Positions 13,239 to 48,640 of a stretch of 64,000 nt of DNA are shown in pieces; the first letter of the stretch is position 1; each line of letters opens with the position of its first letter. Both the position numbers and the translations under genes were made by a program. Source of the stretch: a virus; the UHGV virus genome UHGV-0041314. The stretch is one strand, 5' to 3'. The notes below the pieces were generated by a model, which saw only the letters and a list, made by a program, of their open reading frames with translations, did not search any database and had not been told where the DNA came from.

Positions 13239-14120
13239 ATGAAAACTATTATTGAAGCCGTTGTCACCGCACAAGAGAAATTCTTCCACACAGAAAAATT
13301 TAATATCATCCAATTTCCATCTGGAGAAATTGGTGGAAACTTCTCTGAAGACTTTGTTAAGTTTACTGAGCGTAATGCTGGTAAGGTTGACAATGTTATA
13401 TTGACTGTGCAGGGATATGATAAAGATACACTGTTTGCATTAGCTTTGGCTAAGGATGCCGTTGACAGTCTTGTTCCATACAAATCAGCGATGAAAACCG
13501 TTGTTTTCGGGTTCTTACCAAATGCTCGATATGACCGACATATGTTCAAAGGTGATTCAGCAGCACTGAAAGCTTTTGCCAACCTCGTTAAGGCAATGGG
13601 CTTTGATGCAGTGTGTGCTCTTGACCCTCACAGTAATGTGGCAGAAAACTTATTCAAGTGCTTTCAGAGCATGAAGCAAAAAGATGTAGCAGCACACTTT
13701 GCAAGTGACCCACGCATTGATTTCTTGGTAGCCCCAGATGCAGGTGCAGCTAAGAAGACTGAAGAGACTGCTAAAGAGGTAGATAAGCCATACATCACAA
13801 TGTCTAAAGTACGTAACCTTAAGACTGGTGAAATTACCGGTATGCGAATCCTTGATGATGTTGATTTGACAGATAAAACCGTCATGATTCTTGATGATAT
13901 TTGCGATGGGGGCCGAACCTTCATAGAAGCAGCTAAACATCTTCGTGAAGCAGGTGCAAAACGTGTGGAACTCTATGTAACTCATGGTATTTTCTCTAAA
14001 GGTGTTGAAAACTTACTTGACAATGGTATTGACCATATCTACACTACAAACACTTTAGGTGAAGCTAAAGACCGTGGCTTAACACATTATGGTCAGGTTA
14101 CTGTAGCAACAATTGATTAA
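13239..14120 (+). CDS. ribose-phosphate pyrophosphokinase (PRPP synthetase)-like; candidate ADPR-pyrophosphate synthetase (Adps-like)
   Basis: track ORF from TTG 13224; ATG 13239; PRPP-binding-type motif VMILDDICDGGRT; immediately upstream of Nampt-like gene. Confidence 0.8.
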   Translation: MKTIIEAVVTAQEKFFHTEKFNIIQFPSGEIGGNFSEDFVKFTERNAGKVDNVILTVQGYDKDTLFALALAKDAVDSLVPYKSAMKTVVFGFLPNARYDRHMFKGDSAALKAFANLVKAMGFDAVCALDPHSNVAENLFKCFQSMKQKDVAAHFASDPRIDFLVAPDAGAAKKTEETAKEVDKPYITMSKVRNLKTGEITGMRILDDVDLTDKTVMILDDICDGGRTFIEAAKHLREAGAKRVELYVTHGIFSKGVENLLDNGIDHIYTTNTLGEAKDRGLTHYGQVTVATID

Positions 14121-14129
14121 AACTTTATA

Positions 14130-14150
14130 GGGGCTTGTAAGCCCCATTTT
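14130..14150 (+). terminator. terminator-like hairpin after PRPP-synthetase-like gene
   Basis: GGGGCT-TGTA-AGCCCC then ATTTT. Confidence 0.4.
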
Positions 14151-14165
14151 GAGAGAGATTAAAAG

Positions 14166-15947
14166 ATGACTAAATCACTTTATGCAGTACCAGCAGGTTT
14201 AAACGCAGATGCTTACAAATCTGGTCACATCTACCAGTATCCTAGCGCAACAGAGTACTTGATGTTCAACCTGACACCACGTAGTGACAAATGGTTTAAC
14301 AGCCCCTTAGCAATTGATGGTGTAGTTGCTTTCGGTATTCAACGTTTTGTTAAAGATTACCTGATAGACCACTGGAACGCCACCTTCTTCGAACGTGACA
14401 AAAAAGAAGCAATTGATGAAATCTTAGAAGTCATGAACGGTGTTCTGGGTAAAGATGCTATTGGTCGAGAACATTGGGAAGCACTCCACGACTTAGGTTA
14501 TCTACCAGTTGAAGTATACGCTGTAGAAGAAGGCACAGTTGTCCCTATGCGTGTACCAATGATTGTCTTCCAGAACACTGTTTCAGGTTTCCATTGGGTA
14601 GCGGGGTATCTGGAAGATGCTTTCTCTGCTGAGATTTGGAAGGCTTGTACCATTGCAACTATTGCATTGCACTACAAACGTATCTGTAAGAAGTGGGCTG
14701 ACCTTACTTGTGACAACGACTTGCATTTACCTTATCAGTGCCATGACTTTGCTATGCGTGGTATGTCTGGCTTTACTGATGACGCATTTAACGCTGTAGG
14801 TCACTTAACCAGCTTTAAAGGAACTGATAGCTTCCCTGCTGTATACACGGCTAAACGCATCTATGGACAGTCCTACCCAATCTCTGATATTGGTAGTTCT
14901 GTACCAGCCACTGAACATTCTGTAATGTGTGCAAACATTGCTTGGGAAGGTGGTAACGAGTTGATTGAAGAAGAAAGACGCTTTAAAGGTGAGTTACAAA
15001 CCTTCCGTCGTTTCTTAACAGAAACTTACCCAACTGGTATTGCAAGTGTTGTTTCAGATACTTATAACTTCTGGAGAACTGTATCAGTCATATTGCCAGA
15101 ACTCCGTAAAGAGATTATGGAACGTGATGGCAAACTGGTAATTCGTCCTGATTCTGGAGACCCTGTACATATTGTCACAGGATACAAAGCAATCCATTTA
15201 GAGTGTGCTAAAAAGGCTTATTACGAACACCTAAGTAAGCTGGAAGCCAGCGACACAATGCTGAATGCTGTTCTGAACATGAAGCTTGAAAACATCAATT
15301 ATGGTATTGCTGGATGGCTACTGTCAGAAGGTTACGAAATGGTTGTTGACAGAGAAGACTTTGAAGTTGCTGATACAGTGCTGTTGAAAAATGCTTATAT
15401 GGTTGGTTCTGCAAACGTTGTAACACGTCCTGTAGCGGAGATTGATGGAGCTATCAAGACACTGTATAACATCTTTGGAGGAACTATCAACTCTAAAGGT
15501 TTTAAGGTACTGGATGAGCACATTGGCCTTATCTATGGTGACTCTATCACGTTGGAACGTGCAAACGAAATCCTGAAGCGTTTGTATGAAATGGGTTTTG
15601 CAAGTTCTAACGTAGTGTTTGGTGTAGGTTCTTACACTTACCAGTACATGACTCGTGACACCTTTGCATTTGCTGTCAAAGCAACTCTTGCAAGCATTGG
15701 TGGTAAAGAGATTATGCTTGCAAAAGACCCTAAAACAGACAGTGGTATTAAGAAGTCTGCTTTTGGTGGTGTAGCCCCTATGTGGGATGGTGAGAATCTG
15801 AAAGCTGTAGATGGCTATGGATTCCAGAGTTTTGCAGATGCACTTGAGCATCCAGCTTGTGCTTTACGTCTAGTCTTTAGCGACTCTGAGCAGTTCGGTT
15901 ACACAACTCTTGGTGATATTCGAAATAATATTGACAAGCAGCTTTAA
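14166..15947 (+). CDS. nicotinamide phosphoribosyltransferase (Nampt/NadV)-like; candidate Namat
   Basis: 593 aa; N-terminal DAYKSGHIYQYP resembles the Nampt N-terminal motif; operon partner of PRPP-synthetase-like gene. Confidence 0.8.
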   Translation: MTKSLYAVPAGLNADAYKSGHIYQYPSATEYLMFNLTPRSDKWFNSPLAIDGVVAFGIQRFVKDYLIDHWNATFFERDKKEAIDEILEVMNGVLGKDAIGREHWEALHDLGYLPVEVYAVEEGTVVPMRVPMIVFQNTVSGFHWVAGYLEDAFSAEIWKACTIATIALHYKRICKKWADLTCDNDLHLPYQCHDFAMRGMSGFTDDAFNAVGHLTSFKGTDSFPAVYTAKRIYGQSYPISDIGSSVPATEHSVMCANIAWEGGNELIEEERRFKGELQTFRRFLTETYPTGIASVVSDTYNFWRTVSVILPELRKEIMERDGKLVIRPDSGDPVHIVTGYKAIHLECAKKAYYEHLSKLEASDTMLNAVLNMKLENINYGIAGWLLSEGYEMVVDREDFEVADTVLLKNAYMVGSANVVTRPVAEIDGAIKTLYNIFGGTINSKGFKVLDEHIGLIYGDSITLERANEILKRLYEMGFASSNVVFGVGSYTYQYMTRDTFAFAVKATLASIGGKEIMLAKDPKTDSGIKKSAFGGVAPMWDGENLKAVDGYGFQSFADALEHPACALRLVFSDSEQFGYTTLGDIRNNIDKQL

Positions 15948-20078: not shown

Positions 20079-20095
20079 TAAGTAATTTCTTAAAA

Positions 20096-20178: not shown

Positions 20179-20727
20179 ATGAAGAAATTGATTCTAGGAT
20201 TGTGCTTAATGTTTACAGCACATTTATCTTATGCAGTTGACTGCCCAGAGCTATCAATTAGCCAAAAAGTTAACATGTTAAAAGCTTACCAGTATGGTGA
20301 GAACAACATGGGGAAAGGCTGGGGTATTACTCTAGCAGCTATAGCCTTACAAGAGTCAGAGTTAGGTCTGAAGGTAGAGAATAAAAAGACCCATGACTAT
20401 GGTATTTTCCAGAATCACTTGAAGACTGTTGTAAAGCGTAACAAAATTAGTCCTAATGTGGCTAAAAAGAAACTCTTAAAAGATTTTGACTATGCAGCAA
20501 AAGAGACACATAAAGAGCTTGAGTTTTGGACTAAGGTACATGGTCACCCGAAGTCAAAGAAGACTTTACAAAAAGTTTTAGCATCATATAATGCTGGGTA
20601 TTCGTACAAAATCCCTAAAGCTAAGAAATACTCTCAAGATGTCTATAACAATATGAAAGTTATTGCTCAATGTGAATTTGCAACAAACATTTCTAAGGTA
20701 AATCATGAAAAAATTAAGAAAGTCTGA
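20179..20727 (+). CDS. secreted protein with SLT-like (lytic transglycosylase) motif
   Basis: N-terminal signal peptide; AIALQESELG...YGIFQ resembles the SLT ES/GLMQ motifs. Confidence 0.4.
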   Translation: MKKLILGLCLMFTAHLSYAVDCPELSISQKVNMLKAYQYGENNMGKGWGITLAAIALQESELGLKVENKKTHDYGIFQNHLKTVVKRNKISPNVAKKKLLKDFDYAAKETHKELEFWTKVHGHPKSKKTLQKVLASYNAGYSYKIPKAKKYSQDVYNNMKVIAQCEFATNISKVNHEKIKKV

Positions 20728-21400
20728 TGAAGTCCTGTGCCACGCTTATGACTTGCATCCTCATGAGTTAGGTCTTGATTCCTGTGTATGGACTCCAGAA
20801 CAGTGCAGGGATTTTGAAGACACTGCAAGAGAAGTTGTATGTTCACTTGAAGAGTTCCACACATCAGAACCAATTGTAAACGTTGTGGATAAAGAAACTG
20901 GACAAGCTATAGGTGTAAGTCGTGATAGTTTAGTCATAGTCAATAAAGACCTTGTAGAAAAAGGCAACCTCATCTTAGCAGATATTGATGGTGTTCTTAC
21001 AAATTTTAATCACGAAGATTGCTCAACGGAATTGACTGATGGGTCATTCTCACAATACACTAATCTTCTTGACTCTGTAAGAGCAAAACCAACATATGTT
21101 TTTAGTATTATTGATGCAATTGCTAATCATGCTGCCATTGGACTCTTGACAGCGAGAGGTGAATCTCAGAGAATACCTACTGAGATGTTCTTAAGGCATA
21201 ACATAGAGCATGACTACATGCTTTTTATGCGTGGTTTTGGAACTAACTCTATAAGTGCAGAAAGTTTGAAAGTGAGGATGATTCAGTCTTGCATTCTTCC
21301 TTATTTTAATATAGTATGCTTTATAGAAGATACAGAGAAGAATGTTCAGAAGGTTAACAGAATCCTTCCACACATTAAAACCATGTTAGTTAAACATTGA
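20705..21400 (+). CDS. HAD-superfamily phosphatase-like protein (possible nucleotidase)
   Basis: C-terminal half contains ILADIDGVLTN (HAD motif I, DxDG[TV]). Confidence 0.4.
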   Translation: MKKLRKSDEVLCHAYDLHPHELGLDSCVWTPEQCRDFEDTAREVVCSLEEFHTSEPIVNVVDKETGQAIGVSRDSLVIVNKDLVEKGNLILADIDGVLTNFNHEDCSTELTDGSFSQYTNLLDSVRAKPTYVFSIIDAIANHAAIGLLTARGESQRIPTEMFLRHNIEHDYMLFMRGFGTNSISAESLKVRMIQSCILPYFNIVCFIEDTEKNVQKVNRILPHIKTMLVKH

Positions 21401-21928: not shown

Positions 21929-22276
21929 ATGACATTTAAAGAGTTCTGTCAAGCTACTTTCATAATTGTTTTCTTAGTTGGGGCAGGTGTCTGGGGAGGA
22001 TACTCTTACAGAGACTACCAAGTTGCTGAAGCTGAGTTAAGCAATGAGAAACTAATAAGTGTTGCTAAAGATGCTTATCAGGAAGGTTTAGCCACACTCA
22101 GCACCAATTACAAAAATGATTTGAAAGATGTGCTTGCTAAGAATAAGCATACAAAAGAGGTACTAACATATGAAAAGACTAAGCCAGAGTTTTATAATGT
22201 TTGTGTTACTGATAATTATGTCAGGGTGTTCAACGAACAAAGCGAACAGTACATTCAAAAACTACCAAGTAAGTGA
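21929..22276 (+). CDS. i-spanin-like protein (N-terminal TM + coiled coil)
   Basis: AGGAGA RBS; N-terminal TM helix FIIVFLVGAGVWGGY; next gene starts inside it in another frame. Confidence 0.35.
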   Translation: MTFKEFCQATFIIVFLVGAGVWGGYSYRDYQVAEAELSNEKLISVAKDAYQEGLATLSTNYKNDLKDVLAKNKHTKEVLTYEKTKPEFYNVCVTDNYVRVFNEQSEQYIQKLPSK

Positions 22277-22439
22277 GAGTGACAAGTACACTCAAGAAGA
22301 ATCAAGATTCACTGTCAAAGGTAATACTGGTAGTGATGTGGCAGCAGCCCTTGAATTTTATCGTGATGGTTTTTACCAGTGCACAATAAAAGCTAATAAC
22401 CTTATTGATATGATTTTATTAGGGAACAAACAGCAATGA
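22170..22439 (+). CDS. lipoprotein, o-spanin-like, overlapping the i-spanin-like gene
   Basis: AAGAGG RBS; signal peptide ending in lipobox-like IIMSGC; 107-nt out-of-frame overlap with 21929..22276. Confidence 0.3.
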   Translation: MKRLSQSFIMFVLLIIMSGCSTNKANSTFKNYQVSESDKYTQEESRFTVKGNTGSDVAAALEFYRDGFYQCTIKANNLIDMILLGNKQQ

Positions 22440-23332: not shown

Positions 23333-23534
23333 AAAGACACGGAAAATTACCCGGTCAGCAGTATTCATTGGAAGAAATAGAGTGATTCCATTTACAGCAA
23401 ATGATGTGATAGCCTACAGGGAAAAATTAGCATTTAGTTATTGCTTGCGTGGCTTCATCTCACAACCATTGGAAGACTTCAAAAGTCGTTGTGGCAAAGG
23501 TATCATCATTCAAGAGGCAATTATTCATGGCTGA
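23307..23534 (+). CDS. hypothetical protein
   Basis: track ORF. Confidence 0.3.
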   Translation: MKVILARDKKTRKITRSAVFIGRNRVIPFTANDVIAYREKLAFSYCLRGFISQPLEDFKSRCGKGIIIQEAIIHG

Positions 23535-23727
23535 CTTCTGCAAAGATTGTGCTATCGAAATGTTCGGGCGTGATACAGGAGACTTAAAAGGTCTTATCAC
23601 TGAAGATGACTTTAAAGCTGGCTATGCAATGCCAGTAATCTGTGAAGGTTGTGGATGTATCTGGGTAGACCACGAAGGACAACGTGTAAAACCTTCAGAA
23701 GATAAAGAATCTTGGGAGAGATGTTAA
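23527..23727 (+). CDS. small zinc-ribbon protein
   Basis: track ORF 23449 trimmed to ATG 23527; CKDC...CEGCGC motifs. Confidence 0.35.
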   Translation: MADFCKDCAIEMFGRDTGDLKGLITEDDFKAGYAMPVICEGCGCIWVDHEGQRVKPSEDKESWERC

Positions 23728-24513
23728 ATGGGTATTGTAAAAATCATCAATGGCGATATCTTTGCAGCATTTGATAAAGGTAAGTTTGACGTCATCGGTC
23801 ACGGTTGCAACTGTATGAACTTAATGGGTGCAGGTATCGCTGACAAGATTTCTAAACTTTACCCAAAAGCATATGAGACTGATACAGAAGTTTATCTGTA
23901 TGCAGGTGGAATAGGCCACAAGCCCTGTGAGAATTTACTAGGCAATTTCTCTGTAGCACGTTTAAAACAAGGCCGTATAGCTAACCTTTACACTCAGCTT
24001 AAGACTGGTAAAGATGCCCGATACAGTGCTTTAGAGTCATCTTTGAAACAGCTTAACAGATACTGTGAAGTCAATCAGTTGAAGAAAGTCGGGTTACCTA
24101 TGATTGGTGCAGGTATCGGTGGGCTAGACCCTCAAGCCGTCACAGTTATCATTAATCAGGTGATGAAGAGTGTAGATGTTTATCTGTATGTCTACGAAGG
24201 AGAGATGTACCACAAGTTACGCTCAGGTTGGAAGAACTACTGTGAGCCAGAATACTTTGCAGGTGTAGTAACGTTCACAGATGATGCAGTTACCCTCTTC
24301 AGACGAAGAAAAGGTAAGATACATCAAAGTAACCCTCCGGTTGAGAAGATGTCTCTAAGTAACGCTCTAGTTACCCACCTGTCGAAGGGCAATCACAGGA
24401 TAGCCGTAACATTTGGCAGTGATGCAGATACATATATCTATGCAAGAACTGATGAGGATATCGAGACGGTCTTCTCTTCATCGGAAGTTACCTTCTTAGA
24501 CGCAAAGAACTAA
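23728..24513 (+). CDS. macro-domain (ADP-ribose binding/processing) protein
   Basis: GDIF...DVIGHGCNCMNLMGAGIADKI and LPMIGAGIGGL resemble the macro-domain Gly-rich motifs. Confidence 0.5.
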   Translation: MGIVKIINGDIFAAFDKGKFDVIGHGCNCMNLMGAGIADKISKLYPKAYETDTEVYLYAGGIGHKPCENLLGNFSVARLKQGRIANLYTQLKTGKDARYSALESSLKQLNRYCEVNQLKKVGLPMIGAGIGGLDPQAVTVIINQVMKSVDVYLYVYEGEMYHKLRSGWKNYCEPEYFAGVVTFTDDAVTLFRRRKGKIHQSNPPVEKMSLSNALVTHLSKGNHRIAVTFGSDADTYIYARTDEDIETVFSSSEVTFLDAKN

Positions 24514-24590
24514 GAAACTCTGTATAATATTCACAATATACTAAGCCTTTCTTATCTGGTAAATTTTTCAGGTAAGGAGGGCTTTTTTAT

Positions 24591-24780
24591 TTCAGGATTG
24601 TGCAGGTAGAGTTCCGGACAGAAATCTGTAGAGAAAATTTTGAACTCCAAAGAGAAAATTCATTTTCAAACTGTGCAGGTAATCTCCAAAGAGCTTTTTC
24701 ATTTTCAAAACGTGCAGACCCCGCTCAGGTCGGGCAAGAAAAATCATTTTAGAATTGTGCAGGTAGGTGGGTGCAGGTGG
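24591..24780 (+). repeat. direct-repeat cluster (TGTGCAGGT core with CATTTTCAAA companion), iteron-like
   Basis: GTGCAGGT-type core at ~24599, 24672, 24712 (CGTGCAGAC variant), 24756 and 24770; CATTTTCAAA-like at ~24661, 24699, 24745. Confidence 0.45.
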
Positions 24781-24970: not shown

Positions 24971-25020
24971 TTGCATCAGACGGGCAAGCCAGCCCACTTC
25001 CTAAACTGGAGAACTGAAAA

Positions 25021-25227
25021 ATGACTTACTACCGTGAATTAATGGTTACAACTAACGTTAACACAAAGGTAAAACGTTTTTACATGAAAATCTGTGGCGT
25101 ATGGTCCAGAATATCAGAAGCCGACTATTGCAACTATGTAGAAACGGCTATTAATTCTAATTGCTACCTTACAAGAAACACTAAGAAATTTACAAGGCAG
25201 ACAGCGATTTACTACTACGACAAATAA
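25021..25227 (+). CDS. small hypothetical protein (68 aa), cassette-flanked array gene 1
   Basis: ATG directly after conserved leader CCTAAACTGGAGAACTGAAAA; sigma70-like promoter upstream. Confidence 0.5.
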   Translation: MTYYRELMVTTNVNTKVKRFYMKICGVWSRISEADYCNYVETAINSNCYLTRNTKKFTRQTAIYYYDK

Positions 25228-43429: not shown

Positions 43430-43506
43430 CTCTGTTTAGCTCAGCTTGGTAGAGCGTTCCGTTTGGGGCGGTAAGGCCGGAGGTTCAAGTCCTCCAACAG
43501 AGACCA
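43430..43506 (+). tRNA. tRNA-Pro (anticodon UGG)
   Basis: cloverleaf by eye: acceptor CTCTGTT/AACAGAG, anticodon loop TTTGGGG, T-arm GGAGG-TTCAAGT-CCTCC, CCA encoded. Confidence 0.65.
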
Positions 43507-43513
43507 AATTAAT

Positions 43514-43591
43514 GTTCCAGTAGACAAAATGGTAAAGTCACCACTCTTTCAAAGTGGATATTTGAGGGTTCAAATCCCTTCTGGAACGCCA
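43514..43591 (+). tRNA. tRNA-Glu (anticodon UUC)
   Basis: acceptor GTTCCAG/CTGGAAC, anticodon arm CCACT-CTTTCAA-AGTGG, CCA encoded. Confidence 0.7.
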
Positions 43592-43596
43592 GTTTT

Positions 43597-43672
43597 GACA
43601 GAAGACCAATTGCAGCAAACTTAATCTTATTCATCTGAAGGTAAATCGGACAAAGAAGAGATTTGGTCTGGT
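43597..43672 (+). ncRNA. structured RNA element, bulged-helix family member 1
   Basis: CAGAAGACCAA...TTGGTCTGG long-range pairing with 2-nt bulge enclosing ~55 nt A/U-rich sequence containing CAGCAA. Confidence 0.3.
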
Positions 43673-43682
43673 CATTAAGAAT

Positions 43683-43759
43683 TGCGGGTATAGAGAAAGG
43701 GCGTCTCACATGTCTCATTAGCATGGTATCGGCAGGTTCGACTCCTGCACCCGCCTCCA
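43683..43759 (+). tRNA. tRNA with CAU anticodon (Met or Ile2), irregular 5' half
   Basis: T-arm GCAGG-TTCGACT-CCTGC and CCA clear; anticodon arm CATGT-CTCATTA-GCATG; 1-72 mismatch; extra nt before D-stem. Confidence 0.45.
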
Positions 43760-43763
43760 AATT

Positions 43764-43832
43764 TACAGAAGACCGTTTACAGCAATATTTATTAAATTTT
43801 TAGCGGAAAAATTGAAAGATACGGTCTGGTAA
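43764..43832 (+). ncRNA. structured RNA element, bulged-helix family member 2
   Basis: CAGAAGACCGT...ACGGTCTGG pairing; conserved TTTACAGCAA after 5' strand. Confidence 0.3.
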
Positions 43833-43842
43833 TACTAAACAT

Positions 43843-43919
43843 GGTTAGGAAGCACATAAGGTATGTGCGGTCGCCTGTTAAGCGAATGGCACAGGGTTCG
43901 AATCCCTGACTAACCGCCA
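43843..43919 (+). tRNA. tRNA-Asn (anticodon GUU)
   Basis: acceptor GGTTAGG/ACTAACC, anticodon loop CTGTTAA, T-arm CAGGG-TTCGAAT-CCCTG, CCA. Confidence 0.7.
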
Positions 43920-43988
43920 AATTTAGGAGAGAAGCGATTGCTCACCGATTTGTAAGGTGCAAGTCCTTAGCCTGAATAGAAATTAAAT

Positions 43989-44076
43989 GTGTCGTTATCC
44001 CGTAGATGGTAGCGGTGGGGACTGTAAATCCCTTGTCATTGAGACTCGGTAGGTTCGACTCCTACACGGCACACCA
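43989..44076 (+). tRNA. tRNA-Tyr (anticodon GUA), long variable arm
   Basis: 88 nt; anticodon arm GGGGA-CTGTAAA-TCCCT; variable arm GTC/GAC; T-arm GTAGG-TTCGACT-CCTAC; CCA. Confidence 0.65.
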
Positions 44077-44082
44077 AATAAA

Positions 44083-44160
44083 GGTTATGTAGTTTAATCT
44101 GGTTAAAATACTCCCCTGTCACGGGAGATGATGAGGGTTCGAATCCCTTCGTAACCGCCA
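44083..44160 (+). tRNA. tRNA-Asp (anticodon GUC)
   Basis: acceptor GGTTATG/CGTAACC, anticodon arm CTCCC-CTGTCAC-GGGAG, CCA. Confidence 0.75.
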
Positions 44161-44245
44161 AATTATAATAAGTATTTCAAAATGATGTTTTGAGAGGGCT
44201 ATTTAGCCCCTCCCTTAAAGAGTTCTTACGAGTATTCTTTAAAGG

Positions 44246-44322
44246 AGCAGAAGACCAAATTCAGCAAGTTACTTAAAATTTCAAGCCAATTTAATTTTGA
44301 AAAATTTAAAACTTGGTCTGGC
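44246..44322 (+). ncRNA. structured RNA element, bulged-helix family member 3
   Basis: CAGAAGACCAA...TTGGTCTGG pairing; AATTCAGCAA after 5' strand. Confidence 0.3.
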
Positions 44323-44332
44323 TCAACAAATT

Positions 44333-44468
44333 TACAGAAGACCGTTTACAGCAAACTTTAAACAATCTATTTCTCCGGTAAAGAAAAGGCGAAGGTTCGA
44401 TTCCTTCACTCGGCAGATGTCGAGTTGGTGTAATGGTAGCACTTAAGATGATAAACAACGGTCTGGTA
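44333..44468 (+). ncRNA. structured RNA with circularly permuted tRNA-like module inside a long bulged helix (Y-RNA/YrlA-like candidate)
   Basis: outer helix CAGAAGACCG (44335-44344) / CGGTCTGG (44459-44466); inside, T-arm GAAGG-TTCGATT-CCTTC then acceptor 3' strand ACTCGGC, 4-nt turn, acceptor 5' strand GTCGAGT and D-arm-like TGGTGTAATGGTAGCAC. Confidence 0.4.
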
Positions 44469-44475
44469 ATTATCT

Positions 44476-44604
44476 TTGTAGATAAGTTATTAAGCTTACC
44501 TGTGAGTATGCGACCACAAAGGGTGAAAGGGTAAATTCTAGATTTAAACCCAACAAGGCACATCGCTACAGACCTTAAGCAAGTCTGGGTAGCTTATCTA
44601 CAAA
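44476..44604 (+). ncRNA. structured RNA candidate enclosed by a 10-bp long-range helix
   Basis: TGTAGATAAG (44477-44486) pairs with CTTATCTACA (44595-44604); internal CAGACC...GTCTGG hairpin. Confidence 0.25.
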
Positions 44605-44615
44605 GATGATTTAAT

Positions 44616-44691
44616 GGAAGTGTAGCAGAATGGTGATGCGGCAGACTTTTAATCTGACAGGCGATGGGTTCGAATCCCTCCACTTCTACCA
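44616..44691 (+). tRNA. tRNA-Lys (anticodon UUU)
   Basis: acceptor GGAAGTG/CACTTCT, anticodon loop CTTTTAA; weak T-stem; CCA. Confidence 0.55.
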
Positions 44692-44695
44692 ATAT

Positions 44696-44772
44696 GGTTC
44701 AGTCGCAGATAAGGTAATGCAGGGGTTTCATAAGCCCTATGAATGTGGGTTCGATTCCCATCTGAACCTCCA
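44696..44772 (+). tRNA. tRNA with CAU anticodon (Met/fMet/Ile2)
   Basis: acceptor GGTTCAG/CTGAACC perfect; anticodon arm GGGGT-TTCATAA-GCCCT (G-C rich); T-arm GTGGG-TTCGATT-CCCAT; CCA. Confidence 0.65.
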
Positions 44773-44773
44773 A

Positions 44774-44849
44774 GCTGGTATAGTTAAGAAGGTTATAACA
44801 CTCCCCTGATAAGGGAACATCGGTGGTTCGATTCCACCTACCAGTACCA
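44774..44849 (+). tRNA. tRNA-Ile (anticodon GAU)
   Basis: anticodon loop CTGATAA; T-arm GGTGG-TTCGATT-CCACC; CCA. Confidence 0.7.
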
Positions 44850-44864
44850 ATTTCAATAAAGTTG

Positions 44865-44893
44865 TTGACATTGAGATGTGACGACTTTATAGT
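44865..44893 (+). promoter_or_regulatory. sigma70-like promoter inside the tRNA cluster
   Basis: TTGACA - 17 bp - TATAGT. Confidence 0.55.
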
Positions 44894-45187
44894 AACTGAA
44901 AATGATTCAGTATATGTATAATTCAAACACCAATACATGAGCGTTAGACGTAACACAATGTGGGGAAATTTGTTGTACATATTCTGAATAGTTTTCGTTG
45001 CGTAGCGTCTATTTTGCAAATTTAAAATAAATGCAAACGACAATGTTTTTCTGGCAGTAGCTTGATAGGCTAAACACCAGTGAGGTCTTCCAATCCCTCA
45101 TCAAAGAATTTGGCGTACTAGCCCACGGTATGATTAATAAGGTGGGCATCTTTAAGGGCTTTCTAAGAGAGTCTTTAAAGATAATTA

Positions 45188-45269
45188 CGGGGCGTATCTC
45201 AGCGGTCTTCTAAACCGCCGTTAACCGAGTAAGTGGAGTATGCGGGTTCGAGTCCTGCCGCCTCGACCA
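45188..45269 (+). tRNA. tRNA-like gene with irregular 5' half; anticodon undetermined (possibly UCU)
   Basis: canonical T-arm GCGGG-TTCGAGT-CCTGC, acceptor 3' strand and CCA; D/anticodon region does not fold as a standard cloverleaf by eye. Confidence 0.35.
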
Positions 45270-45412
45270 ATTTAGTTAGCAGATTGCTTAGACGACCTTA
45301 TCGGGTCTCCGTGTAAGGAGGTGGTCTGTATCTCATGTTTTCCAGAACATGTAAATAATCTGAGAAGGGGCTTTACAGTGTTGCGAAAATACGGTAAGCT
45401 TCGAATTACAGT

Positions 45413-45495
45413 ATGGGACGATGTTAAGACTCTAAGGCATGAGCAACGGCCTCCAAAACCGTTTCAAAGGGGTTCAACTCCTCCGTCCCATGCCA
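45413..45495 (+). tRNA. tRNA-Trp-like (anticodon CCA) with ~7 extra nt between acceptor and D-arm
   Basis: 3' two-thirds canonical (ACGGC-CTCCAAA-ACCGT, T-arm, GTCCCAT, CCA); 5' acceptor strand ATGGGAC displaced upstream. Confidence 0.4.
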
Positions 45496-45508
45496 AAGTC
45501 TTATTAGG

Positions 45509-45596
45509 GGTAGGTAGCGGCTAATGGTAGCCAAACTGTCTTGAAAACAGTTGCCACTGTAGAGATACGGTGAGGGTTCGACTCCTTTACTTACCG
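45509..45596 (+). tRNA. tRNA-Ser (anticodon UGA), long variable arm
   Basis: anticodon arm ACTGT-CTTGAAA-ACAGT; T-arm GAGGG-TTCGACT-CCTTT; 3' end encodes CC only. Confidence 0.6.
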
Positions 45597-45754
45597 CCTA
45601 ATAAGATTTACACCGTCCATGCTTGCTCGCATTTTCGGTTTATCCCTCGTGTATTGGTTGTACACACTGATAAAGCACCTAGTAGGTGTCACGGAGAAGA
45701 GATAATATCAAGCTCTCCAAAGGTTCTAGTCACCGGATTAAACAAGACTATGCA

Positions 45755-45776
45755 AAGACCTAAATAGGTCTTTTTA
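45755..45776 (+). terminator. rho-independent terminator inside tRNA cluster
   Basis: AAGACC-TAAATA-GGTCTT then TTTT. Confidence 0.5.
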
Positions 45777-45854
45777 GAGGGCTTCTAAGGTTATTACAGC
45801 TTGTTGTGGAACCTTGTTGCTTAGGTTCTTAGAAGTTCTCTAAAAAGATTTAAT

Positions 45855-45932
45855 GGGAGATTGACGGTAATTGGTAAACCTACCATCCTTAGAAGTTGGT
45901 GTTTGAGGGTTCGAATCCCTTGTCTCCTACCA
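45855..45932 (+). tRNA. tRNA-Leu-like (anticodon UAG), short variable loop
   Basis: acceptor GGGAGAT/GTCTCCT, anticodon loop CTTAGAA, T-arm GAGGG-TTCGAAT-CCCTT, CCA; D region irregular. Confidence 0.45.
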
Positions 45933-45939
45933 AATTAAT

Positions 45940-46015
45940 GCAGGTGTAGCAAAATGGTTATGCGGCTGACTCTTAATCAGTAAGACGATGGGTTCAATTC
46001 CCTCCACCTGTACCA
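45940..46015 (+). tRNA. tRNA-Lys (anticodon CUU)
   Basis: acceptor GCAGGTG/CACCTGT, anticodon arm GCTGA-CTCTTAA-TCAGT, CCA. Confidence 0.55.
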
Positions 46016-46021
46016 AACATT

Positions 46022-46097
46022 GGGGTCATAGTTTATATGGTTAAAATTCGAGTTTTGCAAACTTGGGAACTGAGTTCAACTCTCAGTGACTCCACCA
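46022..46097 (+). tRNA. tRNA-Ala (anticodon UGC)
   Basis: acceptor GGGGTCA/TGACTCC, anticodon loop TTTGCAA, T-arm CTGAG-TTCAACT-CTCAG, CCA. Confidence 0.7.
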
Positions 46098-46103
46098 ATT
46101 AGT

Positions 46104-46178
46104 GCATCCATAGTTTAAACGGGAAAATTACAGTCTTCCAAACTGAGGTTGAGGGTTCGATTCCCTCTGGATGCTCCA
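46104..46178 (+). tRNA. tRNA-Gly (anticodon UCC)
   Basis: acceptor GCATCCA/TGGATGC perfect, anticodon loop CTTCCAA, T-arm GAGGG-TTCGATT-CCCTC, CCA. Confidence 0.75.
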
Positions 46179-46185
46179 AATTAAT

Positions 46186-46262
46186 GCTGCTTTCGTATAA
46201 TTGGCTATTACACATCCCTTGTAAGGATGGAAATGCAGGTTCGAGTCCTGTGAGCAGCACCA
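46186..46262 (+). tRNA. tRNA-Thr (anticodon UGU)
   Basis: anticodon arm CATCC-CTTGTAA-GGATG, T-arm GCAGG-TTCGAGT-CCTGT, CCA. Confidence 0.75.
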
Positions 46263-46263
46263 A

Positions 46264-46356
46264 TTCAGAGGTCAAGTGAAAGACCGCTTTGAGTCAACTG
46301 AAGACCGTAACAAATCCCACGGAGTTGAGTTAGCGGCACAACTTCAGACCTCTTTC
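46264..46356 (+). ncRNA. structured non-tRNA RNA between tRNA-Thr and tRNA-Val
   Basis: nested helices AGAGGTC/GACCTCT, CTGAAG/CTTCAG, TCAACT/AGTTGA; contains CTGAAGACCGTAACAA resembling the CAGAAGACC motif. Confidence 0.3.
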
Positions 46357-46358
46357 AT

Positions 46359-46433
46359 GCTCGCTTAGTTTATATGGTAAAACATCACCCTTACAAGATG
46401 AAGAAAAAGGTTCAAGTCCTTTAGTGAGTACCA
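46359..46433 (+). tRNA. tRNA-Val (anticodon UAC)
   Basis: acceptor GCTCGCT/AGTGAGT, anticodon loop CTTACAA, T-arm AAAGG-TTCAAGT-CCTTT, CCA. Confidence 0.65.
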
Positions 46434-46434
46434 T

Positions 46435-46512
46435 GTTCCAGTATCCCAATTGGCAGAGGATGCAAGCTCAAACCTTGTATTAGTGACGGTTCGAATCCGT
46501 CTTGGAACACCA
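46435..46512 (+). tRNA. tRNA-Leu-like (anticodon CAA), short variable loop
   Basis: anticodon arm GCAAG-CTCAAAC-CTTGT, T-arm GACGG-TTCGAAT-CCGTC, CCA; weak D-stem. Confidence 0.5.
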
Positions 46513-46626
46513 ATTTTAGGAGAACACTATGAGTAATAAATCAATTGCAAAAAAGTTTATAGCGTCATTCAAAAACAGGCGTAAAAACAACTCTTGTGAA
46601 AAACTGTATGGTGTTCTTGTAGGTAA

Positions 46627-46702
46627 GCAGGATTAGTTCAAATGGATAGAGCAACAGTCTACGAAGCTGTTAATAGGGGTTCGAATCCCTTATCCTGCAC
46701 CA
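46627..46702 (+). tRNA. tRNA-Arg (anticodon ACG)
   Basis: acceptor GCAGGAT/ATCCTGC perfect, D-arm GTTC/GAGC, anticodon arm ACAGT-CTACGAA-GCTGT, CCA. Confidence 0.75.
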
Positions 46703-46721
46703 ATTTAAAGAGGCTATTTAG

Positions 46722-47279
46722 ATGAGATATTTGAAGTATGCTTCATGGATTGTCTTAGCTTTGTTAGAGCCATTTGCAGCAATCTTAGCAGTTATCTTAG
46801 CACCTTTCGTAGTCCCATTCTACAGTGAGAAGAAAGGACACTTACCTTTCGGCTTCAGATGGATGGAGACATATGACAACCCAATTGATGGTGATAAAGG
46901 GCATGTCGAACGATGGGCTAAGATTAGAAAGATTGGCAAGCTTGGTGTCTATATGCAGAGAGTCGGTTGGCTCTGGAGAAACAAAGCTTATAACTTCTCT
47001 TACCATGTATTAGGAAGAGATGTAAAAGATGTTACTAAGTGGAAAGGTAATATCAACGTAAGTTCTAACCCTGAAGATAATCAGACAGGTTATCTCCTAA
47101 TGTGGAACAGTAATGCTTGGGGATTATTCGCTTTTATCCCATCAATTAAAGTCTTTGGTAAACAATTCTACTGGAGAATTTATGTTGGATGGAAGCTAAA
47201 AAGTGTTGTCCCAGAAGAAAGAGCATTCTCAAGGGAAAGAGTTATGTTGGCATTCTTTATTCATCCACTAAGAAAGTAA
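46722..47279 (+). CDS. hypothetical membrane protein embedded in tRNA cluster
   Basis: AAAGAGG RBS; N-terminal hydrophobic segment; between tRNA-Arg and tRNA-Gln. Confidence 0.45.
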   Translation: MRYLKYASWIVLALLEPFAAILAVILAPFVVPFYSEKKGHLPFGFRWMETYDNPIDGDKGHVERWAKIRKIGKLGVYMQRVGWLWRNKAYNFSYHVLGRDVKDVTKWKGNINVSSNPEDNQTGYLLMWNSNAWGLFAFIPSIKVFGKQFYWRIYVGWKLKSVVPEERAFSRERVMLAFFIHPLRK

Positions 47280-47287
47280 AGATTTAA

Positions 47288-47363
47288 AGGGGATTAGTTT
47301 ACAAGGTTAAAACCTCGGTCTTTGAAATCGAAGAAGTTGGTTCAATTCCAACATCCCCCGCCA
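47288..47363 (+). tRNA. tRNA-Gln (anticodon UUG)
   Basis: anticodon arm TCGGT-CTTTGAA-ATCGA, T-arm GTTGG-TTCAATT-CCAAC, CCA; A1-C72 mismatch. Confidence 0.65.
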
Positions 47364-47365
47364 AT

Positions 47366-47444
47366 GCTCCATTACTCCAATTGGTAGAGAGGCCAGACTT
47401 AAAATCTGTGTTATGTATCGGTTCGAATCCGATATGGAGTACCA
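47366..47444 (+). tRNA. tRNA-Leu-like (anticodon UAA), short variable loop
   Basis: anticodon loop CTTAAAA, T-arm ATCGG-TTCGAAT-CCGAT, CCA. Confidence 0.5.
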
Positions 47445-47449
47445 AATTT

Positions 47450-47525
47450 AGCGGTATAGCATAACTGGCAATGCAGCAGTCTCTGAAGCTGTCTTATTAA
47501 GGTTCAAATCCTTATGCCGCTGCCA
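47450..47525 (+). tRNA. tRNA-Gln (anticodon CUG)
   Basis: standard numbering fits: D-arm GCAT/ATGC, anticodon arm GCAGT-CTCTGAA-GCTGT, T-arm TAAGG-TTCAAAT-CCTTA, CCA. Confidence 0.7.
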
Positions 47526-47556
47526 CTTCTAAGGGTTCTTACGAGAGTCCTTAAAT

Positions 47557-47632
47557 GTGGCCTTATCATAAATGGTAATGACCCATGCTGTGAACATGGT
47601 CTATACGGGTTCAAATCCCGTAGGTCACCCCA
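47557..47632 (+). tRNA. tRNA-His (anticodon GUG)
   Basis: D-arm TCAT/ATGA, anticodon arm CCATG-CTGTGAA-CATGG, T-arm ACGGG-TTCAAAT-CCCGT, CCA. Confidence 0.75.
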
Positions 47633-47638
47633 ATTTAT

Positions 47639-47714
47639 AGTCCAAGTAGCTTATATGGTTAAAGCGCGTGTCTGAAAAACATGAGAAGAGGGTTCAAATC
47701 CCACTGGACTACCA
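47639..47714 (+). tRNA. tRNA-Phe (anticodon GAA)
   Basis: anticodon arm CGTGT-CTGAAAA-ACATG, D-arm GCTT/AAGC, CCA; acceptor/T-stem register ambiguous by 1 nt. Confidence 0.6.
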
Positions 47715-47730
47715 ATTCCAAAGGTGCTTA

Positions 47731-48465
47731 ATGAAAGAGATGACAGAACAAGGTAAGGAGATTTTTAATCTCTTAAAAACCGGTAGAGGGTTTTCTAATC
47801 CCCTTATTACTGGTGCAGCAGTTCTCGGTGGAACCGTAGCTGCCTCTACATCACTTGTAAGCTCTATTAGCTCTGTAACAGACCCTACAATAAAAGATAA
47901 ACTTGTTGCTGCTGGACTTACAACAGTTCTGCTTAACAGCTTTACAACGAGCCTGACAAGCACTACATCAACTACTAAGACACTGACAGATTACGGTCAA
48001 AAGTCCATTGATGAGTTTTCCTCACGTATGCAGGTAGCAAAAGGCTATTCTAATGTTATGGGTGCAGCAGGTGAACAAGTTGGCTGTACACCATTTAGTG
48101 GTATTATGGGTGTTGCTACAGAGTATGGTCAAAAAGCTATGGATACGATTAACAGTGCACTAGACGGTGTTAATGATGTATTAAGTGACTTACAGGATGC
48201 TATTGATAAAGGTCTTGATACTATTTCTGATTTAGCTAACCAAGCTGTTAGTAAGATTAATGAAGGTATCTCGAAGATTACAGCTTATGCAGATGAAGTT
48301 GTGCAGATGATTGAAGAAGAAGCTGCCCTTATTGCAGAGTACCTTAAAACGAATATCAATGGGTTCTTAGCAGGTATCTTACCAGACTGGTTCGACGATG
48401 CTTGTAAAACTGGTGTAATTGACACTATTGCAACACCAGAAATGAAGAACGCATTACAGAAATAA
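47731..48465 (+). CDS. hypothetical Ser/Thr-rich protein embedded in tRNA cluster
   Basis: track ORF 47668 starts at GTG inside tRNA-Phe; ATG 47731 with AAGGTG RBS lies after the tRNA. Confidence 0.4.
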   Translation: MKEMTEQGKEIFNLLKTGRGFSNPLITGAAVLGGTVAASTSLVSSISSVTDPTIKDKLVAAGLTTVLLNSFTTSLTSTTSTTKTLTDYGQKSIDEFSSRMQVAKGYSNVMGAAGEQVGCTPFSGIMGVATEYGQKAMDTINSALDGVNDVLSDLQDAIDKGLDTISDLANQAVSKINEGISKITAYADEVVQMIEEEAALIAEYLKTNINGFLAGILPDWFDDACKTGVIDTIATPEMKNALQK

Positions 48466-48467
48466 AT

Positions 48468-48560
48468 GGAAGATTAACCCTAAAAGGTAAGGGAGCAGTT
48501 TGCTAAACTGCCAGTAGCTGAGAAATCGGTGTACCAGTTCAAGTCTGGTATCTTCCTCCA
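48468..48560 (+). tRNA. tRNA-Ser (anticodon GCU), long variable arm
   Basis: 93 nt; acceptor GGAAGAT/ATCTTCC perfect, anticodon arm GCAGT-TTGCTAA-ACTGC, T-arm ACCAG-TTCAAGT-CTGGT, CCA. Confidence 0.7.
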
Positions 48561-48564
48561 ATTT

Positions 48565-48640
48565 GAATCCGTGACAGAAATGGCTATGTGCCTGTCTGCA
48601 AAACAGGTTTATAAGGGTTCGAGTCCCTTCGGATTCTCCA
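48565..48640 (+). tRNA. tRNA-Cys (anticodon GCA)
   Basis: standard numbering fits: acceptor GAATCCG/CGGATTC, anticodon arm CCTGT-CTGCAAA-ACAGG, T-arm AAGGG-TTCGAGT-CCCTT, CCA. Confidence 0.8.

Follow-up and report, generated by a model that had tools for sequence, protein, structure and literature searches.

In this 64,000-nucleotide stretch of viral DNA (UHGV virus genome UHGV-0041314, hereafter the window) we found that the ORF at 23728–24513 encodes a two-domain protein, in which an N-terminal macrodomain (residues 1–157), catalytically intact and of the phage Poa1p-like family, is joined to an orphan, fast-evolving C-terminal module (residues 158–261). With a probability of about 0.8, this protein is an active 1''-ADP-ribosyl hydrolase used in counter-defence, and homology gives good support to an ADP-ribose-directed role of this kind. 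Its substrate is a more tentative matter: we slightly favour ADP-ribosylated DNA of the type made by DarTG2, as for the AdfM of phage T4, over ADP-ribose (ADPR)-1''-phosphate, as for the Adpp proteins of other phages. Whilst a macro call already exists as an annotation of this gene, and the kind of macro is itself known, the two-domain architecture with its orphan tail is new.

The gene, its signals and its neighbourhood

The ORF named in the preliminary description is present on the + strand as described there, and both of the motifs it singled out are found in the product: DVIGHGCNCMNLMGAGIADKI at residues 21–41 (23788..23850) and LPMIGAGIGGL at residues 123–133 (24094..24126). The gene and its flanking signals are as follows.

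23714..23720, + strand: Shine–Dalgarno-like GGGAGAG, 7 nt 5' of the ATG, read directly from the sequence
23728..24513, + strand: macro fusion coding sequence, 261 aa plus stop, ATG to TAA, two-domain
24543..24594 (also delimited as 24543..24584), + strand: intrinsic terminator 3' of the macro gene, with a 17-bp stem containing six G-C pairs and a T-tract

The stop codon of the preceding ORF abuts the ATG of the macro fusion (TAAATG), which suggests translational coupling of the two genes. As the terminator 3' of the macro gene is a strong one, the macro gene is the last cistron of its transcription unit. Beyond the terminator comes an array of small ORFs, and the earlier placing of the gene immediately upstream of a hypervariable array is thus essentially right. 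From 25233 on, a promoter–hairpin cassette is repeated 5' of each small ORF, and in other Felixounaviruses extra small genes are inserted at about 25000. A conserved partnership with the CxxC mini-protein encoded upstream was considered and rejected, as that protein is confined to Felixounavirus and Mooglevirus and is absent from distant relatives.

The source phage is a Felixounavirus (a Felix-O1-like myovirus), and a 3-kb region around the gene matches ∼250 phage records at 90–95 % nucleotide identity. The macro fusion protein has a 100 % identical counterpart in Escherichia phage vB_EcoM-Ro111lw (AXH65177.1), where it bears the annotation 'putative macro domain protein'; other records carry the labels 'phosphatase', 'O-acetyl-ADP-ribose deacetylase' / ymdB or 'hypothetical protein', of which the ymdB label originates from an automatic HAMAP rule.

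Further upstream lies NARP1, which has been experimentally validated in the Felixounavirus Bas63 (genes 79–80). Its two genes, together with other features of the window that bear on function, are listed here.

13239..14120, + strand: Adps (Prs-like), NARP1 gene, by orthology to Bas63 genes 79–80
14166..15947, + strand: Namat (NAMPT-like), NARP1 gene, by orthology to Bas63 genes 79–80
20705..21400: PNK-like HAD gene, between the terminators at 20092 and 21888
43430..48640: tRNA cluster; the phage has 25 tRNAs

The macro gene had been placed between the NAD+ module and the array, and this order holds, but only loosely, as NARP1 (13239..15947) ends 7.8 kb upstream in another transcription unit and two terminators separate it from the macro gene; position is thus a weak argument for any role. 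The interval contains rIIA, rIIB, the terminators at 20092 and 21888, an Rz/Rz1 spanin pair and about ten small genes. Relatives with a macro protein of only 33–44 % identity, the Erwinia Kolesnikvirus among them, have the same order (Adps, Namat, rIIA, rIIB, macro fusion), and in every distant two-domain homologue examined the fusion lies 8–10 kb downstream of Adps/Namat. Co-occurrence with NARP1 is universal in this lineage, and inheritance of the phage backbone from a common ancestor explains it equally well.

Fold, class and active site of the macro domain

The macro fold proposed in the preliminary description was confirmed by Pfam, AlphaFold2 and Foldseek. The domain and the codons of its core residues are located as follows.

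23728..24198, + strand: macro domain, residues 1–157, of the Poa1p-like / Tk.4 / Adpp phage family (Pfam, PHROG 335, alignments, AlphaFold2 model, Foldseek against the PDB)
23800..23802, + strand: codon of H25 (alignments)
23809..23811, + strand: codon of N28 (alignments)
23983..23997, + strand: codons of N86-L-Y-T-Q90 (alignments)

Pfam PF01661 (Macro) matches residues 25–141 with 32.3 bits against a gathering cut-off of 22 (E 1.1e-7), and PHROG 335 ('phosphatase'), a family matched in about 2,800 phage records, aligns over the full length (E 6e-113). An AlphaFold2 model made with 30 homologues as input has a mean pLDDT of 91.9 and a pTM of 0.89. When searched against the PDB with Foldseek it matched many macrodomains with probability 1.00 and target-normalised TM values of 0.74–0.84: Thermus aquaticus DarG was the top match (0.81), and human TARG1 (0.83), BT1257 (0.80), Mycobacterium tuberculosis DarG (0.78) and yeast Poa1p (0.74) were among its neighbours. 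A sequence search of the PDB gave TARG1 as the best match (E 1e-5), with SARS-CoV-2 Mac1 also among the matches (E about 1e-3). The structural class is that of the ALC1/TARG1-like macrodomains, and the comparators suggested previously, MacroD and Af1521, belong to the wrong class, the neighbours by both sequence and structure being DarG, TARG1, Poa1p and BT1257. In keeping with this, the catalytic Asp of the MacroD-type G-G-G-V-D motif is not found, as the loop reads M-G-A-G-I-A-D-K and has no Asp at the MacroD position.

The motifs of PHROG 335 (H-x-C-N-C, M-G-x-G-I-A, N-x-Y-x-Q and P-x-I-G-x-G) are kept in alignments of 13–36 sequences, the last of them lying within a conserved P124-x-I-G-A-G-I130 segment. 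Invariant in the 30-homologue alignment are H25, G26, N28, C29, M33, G36, A38, N86-L-Y-T-Q90, P124, G127, G129 and I130; in a comparison of 36 domains, the Kolesnikvirus orthologue has Gln at the H25 position. H25 aligns with Poa1p H23 and with H24 of the Adpp of Vibrio phage Gary, whilst N28 aligns with N23 of PhiKZ AdfM. We infer that the macro domain binds ADP-ribose and, by hydrolysis at C1'' of the distal ribose, removes the group attached there to leave free ADP-ribose. Via the alignments with PhiKZ gp104 and TARG1, Q90 occupies the position of K80 of T. aquaticus DarG (F-P-T-K motif) and K84 of TARG1, the catalytic lysines of those enzymes; T4 Tk.4 also has Gln here, and TARG1 D125 aligns with Gly131. 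With Gln90 in place of the lysine, the enzyme differs mechanistically from DarG, and any DNA de-ADP-ribosylation by it must use chemistry different from DarG's.

The C-terminal module and its evolution

The last 104 residues are the most unusual part of the protein and were overlooked in the preliminary description.

24199..24510, + strand: C-terminal orphan module, residues 158–261, consisting of a helix, six β-strands and a terminal helix

The fold of the module is predicted with confidence, with pLDDT values of 85–93 in the full model and 81.6 when modelled alone, and the module gave no match in Pfam or NCBIfam. When 1.84 billion representatives were searched with a profile, the module turned up in no other protein context, only fused to this macro; the long multi-stretch matches of that search are spurious and stem from PQQ/β-propeller repeats, whilst P0032 and P0039 are fragments cut short by truncation. 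A structure search of BFVD with the module matched only the SUSP2 orthologue. All Ounavirinae orthologues keep the module (total lengths 246–264 aa). It has no detectable sequence or structural relative outside Ounavirinae-like phages and is always fused to this macro. An origin by fission or fusion involving T4 tk.3, tk.2 or tk.1 was rejected, as no similarity to the module was found among them (best E 0.5, and that to tk itself). The module is neutral to acidic (pI 4.8–7.7), and no nucleic-acid-binding signature was seen in it.

The two domains differ markedly in their rates of change. Among close Felixounavirus alleles the macro domain shows 99–100 % amino acid identity and a dN/dS of 0.01–0.03 at a dS of 0.1–0.28, and is under extreme purifying selection, whereas the module of the same alleles has a dN/dS of 0.11–0.45, 10–40 times the macro-domain value. 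In deeper comparisons, the values are 0.13–0.38 for the macro domain and 0.5–0.9 for the module. A metagenomic Felixounavirus (L007) has 94.5 % nucleotide identity to the window over 9 kb upstream, and its upstream protein is 98.5 % identical, but its macro fusion allele is only 41 % identical and blastn similarity is gone from about 23870 to 24699; the whole allele has been swapped in a near-identical backbone. At the same time the gene is nearly core in the Ounavirinae, being present in 244–258 records compared with 260 for rIIB (≥ 60 % identity), and between genera it diverges faster than rIIB. Such a combination, in which a conserved enzyme carries an appendage that changes rapidly and alleles are swapped, is expected of a gene in direct conflict with variable host factors. 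The dN/dS contrast and allele swap are better matched by an arms race between proteins or other macromolecules than by a housekeeping step on a small molecule.

Candidate substrates and competing functions

Four sets of characterised proteins bear on the substrate. The closest by identity is T4 Tk.4, named AdfM (anti-DarT factor, macrodomain), the knockout of which sensitises T4 to DarTG2 (HIDEN-SEQ preprint, 10.1101/2025.11.20.689424). It is about 34–35 % identical to the macro fusion over residues 3–157 (pairwise E 3e-24), belongs to PHROG 335, and shares the motifs H-G-C-N-C, M-G-x-G-(I/V)-A, N-L-Y-T-Q and P-x-I-G-A-G-I as well as the short catalytic loop and the Gln at the DarG-lysine position. 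Unlike the protein described here, Tk.4 is a single domain of 155 aa with no counterpart to the 104-residue module. In addition, T4 is not known to have NARP1 genes, whereas this phage has them.

The second set is that of the Adpp proteins. The gene for Adpp of Vibrio phage Gary (KNV71_gp137) lies between Adps and Namat, and its product converts ADPR-1''-phosphate, which is made by aRES (a RES-domain NAD+ phosphorylase), to ADPR, allowing NARP1 to rebuild NAD+; a Poa1p-like macro of this kind is found in 15 % of NARP1 operons, the Gary enzyme is needed against aRES, and its H24A mutant is inactive (10.64898/2026.01.28.702374). Adpp proteins are 27–34 % identical to the macro fusion (Gary 0.27, JG004 0.34); JG004, which reaches 0.40 with the P0013 orthologue, equals the Tk.4 level, and the Achelous orthologue of Adpp is 29 % identical to the macro fusion and 35 % to Tk.4. 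[quoted passage not shown] Unlike the macro fusion gene, adpp genes lie inside or within two genes of the NARP1 operon, and their products mostly read H-Q-x-N-C, carry a 4–7-residue aromatic loop insertion and have no C-terminal module.

Thirdly, DarG (T. aquaticus 5M31/5M3E, M. tuberculosis 5M3I) resembles the macro fusion in fold, class and the layout of a macro followed by a second C-terminal domain, and is its only PADLOC match (3e-13) and best NCBIfam match (1.6e-12). The NCBIfam model (NF048014) is, however, matched with 47.4 bits against a curated cut-off of 250 and over profile positions 12–153 of 338 only; no similarity to the C-terminal, DarT-binding half of DarG was detected with this profile, and no darT gene is adjacent, the neighbours being phage genes. 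PhiKZ gp104, which is also named AdfM, removes ADP-ribose from DarT2-modified DNA in vitro, with lower activity when N23 is mutated. It matches DarG at E 1e-24 (9e-25 for that of M. tuberculosis) and has the F-P-T-K-x-H-W-R motif, whereas the macro fusion, which is 20–23 % identical to DarG and about 21–23 % to gp104, matches DarG at only about 1e-3 and has N-L-Y-T-Q in place of that motif, although it shares the conserved Asn (N23 in PhiKZ, N28 here). On sequence grounds, the two proteins named AdfM fall into different macro families.

Lastly, yeast Poa1p (6LFQ) and human TARG1/OARD1 (4J5R) share the ALC1/TARG1-like class, and Poa1p has H-x-C-N-C with H23. They are, however, cellular proteins of different biology with 21–25 % identity, and K84 and D125 of TARG1 are replaced by Q90 and G131 here.

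Using 36 macro domains, comprising eight Ounavirinae fusions, two Tk.4, 13 NARP1-adjacent Adpp (10.64898/2026.01.28.702374, Table S1) and others, we looked for features that separate these possibilities. An aromatic insertion of 4–7 residues after the Y-x-Q motif is present in 13 of the 13 sampled Adpp proteins, an empirical signature of this sample rather than a published criterion, and most of them read H-Q-x-N-C. The macro fusion has instead a short NLYTQLKTGK loop, and the short loop and H-G-C-N-C are common to the Ounavirinae proteins and Tk.4. Yeast Poa1p, a true ADPR-1''-P phosphatase, is also short-looped, which weakens loop length as a marker of substrate; the short loop is probably the ancestral state and compatible with phosphatase activity. 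In a neighbour-joining tree with 500 bootstraps the Ounavirinae proteins were monophyletic in 379, with Tk.4 alone as sister in 25 and Adpp alone in seven. These sequence, loop and tree comparisons do not separate an AdfM-like from an Adpp-like role. The earlier suggestions of ADP-ribosylation reversal and of ADP-ribose recycling both stand as roles of homologues (Tk.4/AdfM against DarTG2, and Adpp for NARP1, respectively), but for this clade tree and motifs favour neither. For a further suggestion, degradation of the Thoeris signal, no support was found, the only macro in the paper checked being the host ThsA effector. The Bas63 PhageMaP study does not mention the macro gene, and we found no literature linking Bas63 with DarTG or addressing Ounavirinae macro proteins.

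In the reading that we tentatively prefer, the gene would encode an early-expressed two-domain counter-defence enzyme, the macro domain of which would remove the ADP-ribose put by DarT2-type toxins on thymidines of phage single-stranded DNA, so that phage replication and packaging would be restored. The lineage-specific module could then serve in targeting or in binding a partner, much as the C-terminal domain of DarG binds DarT, although the two domains would be alike in function and not by descent. We lean towards this AdfM-like role because Tk.4 is the closest characterised relative by identity and DarG the best PADLOC, NCBIfam and PDB structural match, because N28 is invariant and corresponds to PhiKZ N23, and because H-G-C-N-C and the short loop are as in Tk.4. 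The dN/dS contrast, the allele swap and the near-core status of the gene point the same way, as does, in a small way, the Kolesnikvirus Gln at His25, which argues against phosphatase chemistry as the conserved function of the clade. Several observations run against it: Gln90 stands where DarG has its catalytic lysine, the tree does not make Tk.4 the sister group, Tk.4 is equalled in identity by some Adpp, Poa1p is short-looped, the module lacks a nucleic-acid-binding signature, the NCBIfam DarG profile covers the macro part alone, the support from T4 is genetic only and comes from a single preprint, and the phage's NARP1 would benefit from Adpp activity.

This last point introduces the strongest alternative, which we regard as possible if somewhat unlikely: that the protein acts in trans as an ADPR-1''-phosphate phosphatase, turning the aRES product into ADPR for the phage's own NARP1, so that Felixounaviruses would in effect be NARP1-AP phages. 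The phage encodes NARP1, which was shown experimentally in Bas63; the identity to Adpp, the correspondence of H25 to the catalytic H24 and the 'phosphatase' label of PHROG 335 are all in line with such a role, as are the occurrence of Adpp in NARP1 operons, the activity and necessity of the Gary enzyme against aRES, and the constant 8–10 kb spacing in distant homologues. The published Adpp screen was confined to within two genes of NARP1, and its Table S1 contains no Escherichia or Salmonella phages (10.64898/2026.01.28.702374); a screen of this design would miss the macro fusion gene. Moreover, ADPR-PP decays to ADPR-cyclic-phosphate in Bas63 infections, which may be another reason for such an activity. 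Against this, the gene is outside the NARP1 operon, 7.8 kb away across rIIA, rIIB, the spanins and two terminators, and shared phage ancestry alone can explain the synteny. The product is without the loop insertion and H-Q-x-N-C of the sampled Adpp (n = 13), the Kolesnikvirus orthologue has Gln for the catalytic His, and the macro family is common where the few kilobases around it show no NARP1 (T4, Maynard, tuntematon and BUCT695). Nor would a phosphatase acting on a small molecule account for a fast-evolving additional domain or for the replacement of alleles. It is conceivable that one enzyme serves both the anti-DarTG2 and the NARP1-feeding role, because both reactions cleave the 1'' substituent of ADP-ribose.

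Rather unlikely, in our view, is a bifunctional 'antitoxin mimic' with a convergent toxin- or sensor-binding tail, in which the macro erases ADP-ribosylated DNA and/or ADPR-1''-P whilst the tail attaches directly to an ADP-ribosyltransferase or NADase that varies between hosts, such as DarT2 or aRES, and blocks it. The raised tail dN/dS and the exchange of whole alleles between near-identical phages would be accounted for in this way.

A little more doubtful still is a broad-specificity de-ADP-ribosylase or ADPR-metabolite hydrolase with some other target, either ADP-ribosylated RNA or protein (modified by host toxins or phage ADP-ribosyltransferases) or O-acetyl-ADP-ribose, as for YmdB/MacroD. 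TARG1 and viral Mac1, which are of the same structural class, act on several substrates, and the Mac1 sequence match and the deacetylase/ymdB record labels lend this idea some appeal. That label, however, stems from the automatic rule, neither MacroD nor Af1521 ranks among the best matches by structure, the NCBIfam model for the PRK00431-family macro (NF001666, 'ADP-ribose-binding protein') matches only at E 0.19, and no homologue in this phage family has been shown to have such activities.

Two further explanations are very improbable. As an accessory to RNA repair, the enzyme would dephosphorylate ADPR-1''-phosphate released when a 2'-phosphotransferase of the Tpt1/KptA type takes part in tRNA repair, and would act alongside the PNK-like HAD protein, on this reading encoded in the same transcription unit, and the 25 tRNAs. 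The role of Poa1p in yeast tRNA splicing, the HAD gene here and in distant relatives, the tRNA cluster and the RNA ligases that flank the macro operon in Vibrio phage Achelous could be cited for it, but neither an RNA ligase nor a Tpt1 gene was seen near the macro gene, T4-type repair is not known to leave a 2'-phosphate, and the fast-evolving module would go unexplained. A protein that binds ADP-ribose or a signal without catalysis (a sponge), or else an accessory gene that is largely dispensable, might be read from the replacement of the DarG/TARG1 catalytic lysine by Q90, but His25, Asn28 and the glycine-rich loops are retained, the macro dN/dS is 0.01–0.03 in a nearly core gene, Gary Adpp is active in vitro and T4 shows a clear phenotype when tk.4 is lost.

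The Felixounaviruses Felix O1 and Bas63 are widely used in typing, biocontrol and therapy, and Bas63 is the model phage for NARP1. The family of this near-core macro gene now has two documented counter-defence activities, and establishing which of them this gene has would allow host range to be predicted for strains with DarTG2 or aRES. The C-terminal tail is the part worth experiments: with no detectable relatives and its faster evolution, it lends itself to study as a possible new fold for binding or inhibition. Should Adpp activity in trans prove true, the reported 15 % share of NARP1 phages that beat aRES would be an underestimate, and NARP1 could no longer be said to fail against aRES in the phage of its discovery. 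If, instead, the AdfM-like role that we prefer is true, anti-DarTG2 macrodomains without the DarG lysine would be widespread beyond T4-like phages.

Allelic replacement at the macro locus

The macro gene encodes a macro domain fused to a C-terminal module. We compared the window with a Felixounavirus contig (L007; Logan SRR18206799) whose backbone is 94.5 % nucleotide-identical to it. The macro-fusion allele of this contig shares only 41 % protein identity with that of the window (window ∼23870..24699 versus L007 10143..10934), with a recombination boundary ∼140 nt within the macro gene. For the CxxC gene upstream of it, identity between the two is 98.5 %. Judged from these alignments, the difference at the macro locus is an allelic replacement. 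An orthologous fusion of 260 aa was also identified in the Kolesnikvirus Erwinia phage vEam_PM_6 (L008 9998..10780), where the motif reads G-Q-G-C-N-C, placing Gln at the position of the catalytic His of yeast Poa1p (H23) and of Adpp, the ADPR-1''-phosphate phosphatase of Vibrio phage Gary (H24), which is H25 in the window protein. Its C-terminal module is only 15–20 % identical to the Felixounavirus module. Additionally, a 94.6 %-identical copy of the Felixounavirus macro gene is found at 127901..128683 of 'Staphylococcus phage SA1' (GU169904.1, 147 kb), suggesting that this entry is chimeric or contaminated.

Promoter-hairpin cassettes and gene content 3' of the macro gene

Each small + strand ORF 3' of the macro gene is preceded by a repeated intergenic cassette.

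Repeated intergenic cassettes in the window (∼70 nt each)
25233
25702
26081
26683
27936
28733

Within each cassette is a predicted sigma70-like promoter (TTTACA, 17 nt, then TATCTT, TAGAGT or TAAAGT), in which the hairpin GGGGCTTA...TAAGCCCC is embedded, followed by AGATAAAGAGCTTTACCACTAAAT. The hypervariable array of the preliminary description corresponds to this region of repeated cassettes and small ORFs. The cassettes resemble the mobile regulatory elements, built of a promoter and a stem-loop, of hyperplastic regions of the T4 type. Gene content differs among phages by presence and absence from ∼0.5 kb past the macro gene, as momo (L012 2534..2703) and D1-2 (L013 2484..2707) carry ∼170–220 bp extra relative to window ∼25000..25023; in Typing phage 1 the order and content match those of the window. 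Two annotated small ORFs (189–192 and 207 nt) cover the extra segment and shared sequence beyond it.

Neighbouring genes

Features in the window
20705..21400, PNK-like protein of the HAD family with a DxDGV motif (phrog_3970 'polynucleotide kinase')
21929..22276 and 22170..22439, overlapping Rz/Rz1-type spanin pair (phrog_1152 and embedded lipoprotein-like ORF)
23527..23727, 66-aa zinc-ribbon-like protein with two CxxC pairs (phrog_2210)
43430..48640, + strand, cluster of 25 tRNA genes

The PNK-like gene keeps its relative position in distant Ounavirinae-like contigs, and as Pfam detects no kinase domain in its product, this appears to be the phosphatase half alone. The spanin pair lies between rIIB and the macro gene, within an early-looking unit. 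The CxxC gene, probably translationally coupled to the macro gene, is retained in Felixounavirus and Mooglevirus and absent from more distant relatives.

AdfM naming and a possible role beside NARP1

The name AdfM (anti-DarT factor, macrodomain) has been given in the literature to both PhiKZ gp104 and T4 Tk.4. The former is a true DarG-type macro protein by sequence, possessing the F-P-T-K lysine motif (E-value 9e-25 to Mtb DarG); the latter is Poa1p-like, with Gln in place of that lysine. The two are non-orthologous despite their common name, and carrying function from one to the other by name would be unsafe. In the paper on NARP1 (NAD+ reconstitution by Adps and Namat) in phage Bas63, the intermediate ADPR-PP is described as converting spontaneously to ADPR-cyclic-phosphate during infection. 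Hypothetically, a macro phosphatase acting alongside a cyclic phosphodiesterase might rescue this dead-end compound which, if true, would be a further reason for NARP1 phages to carry a macro enzyme.
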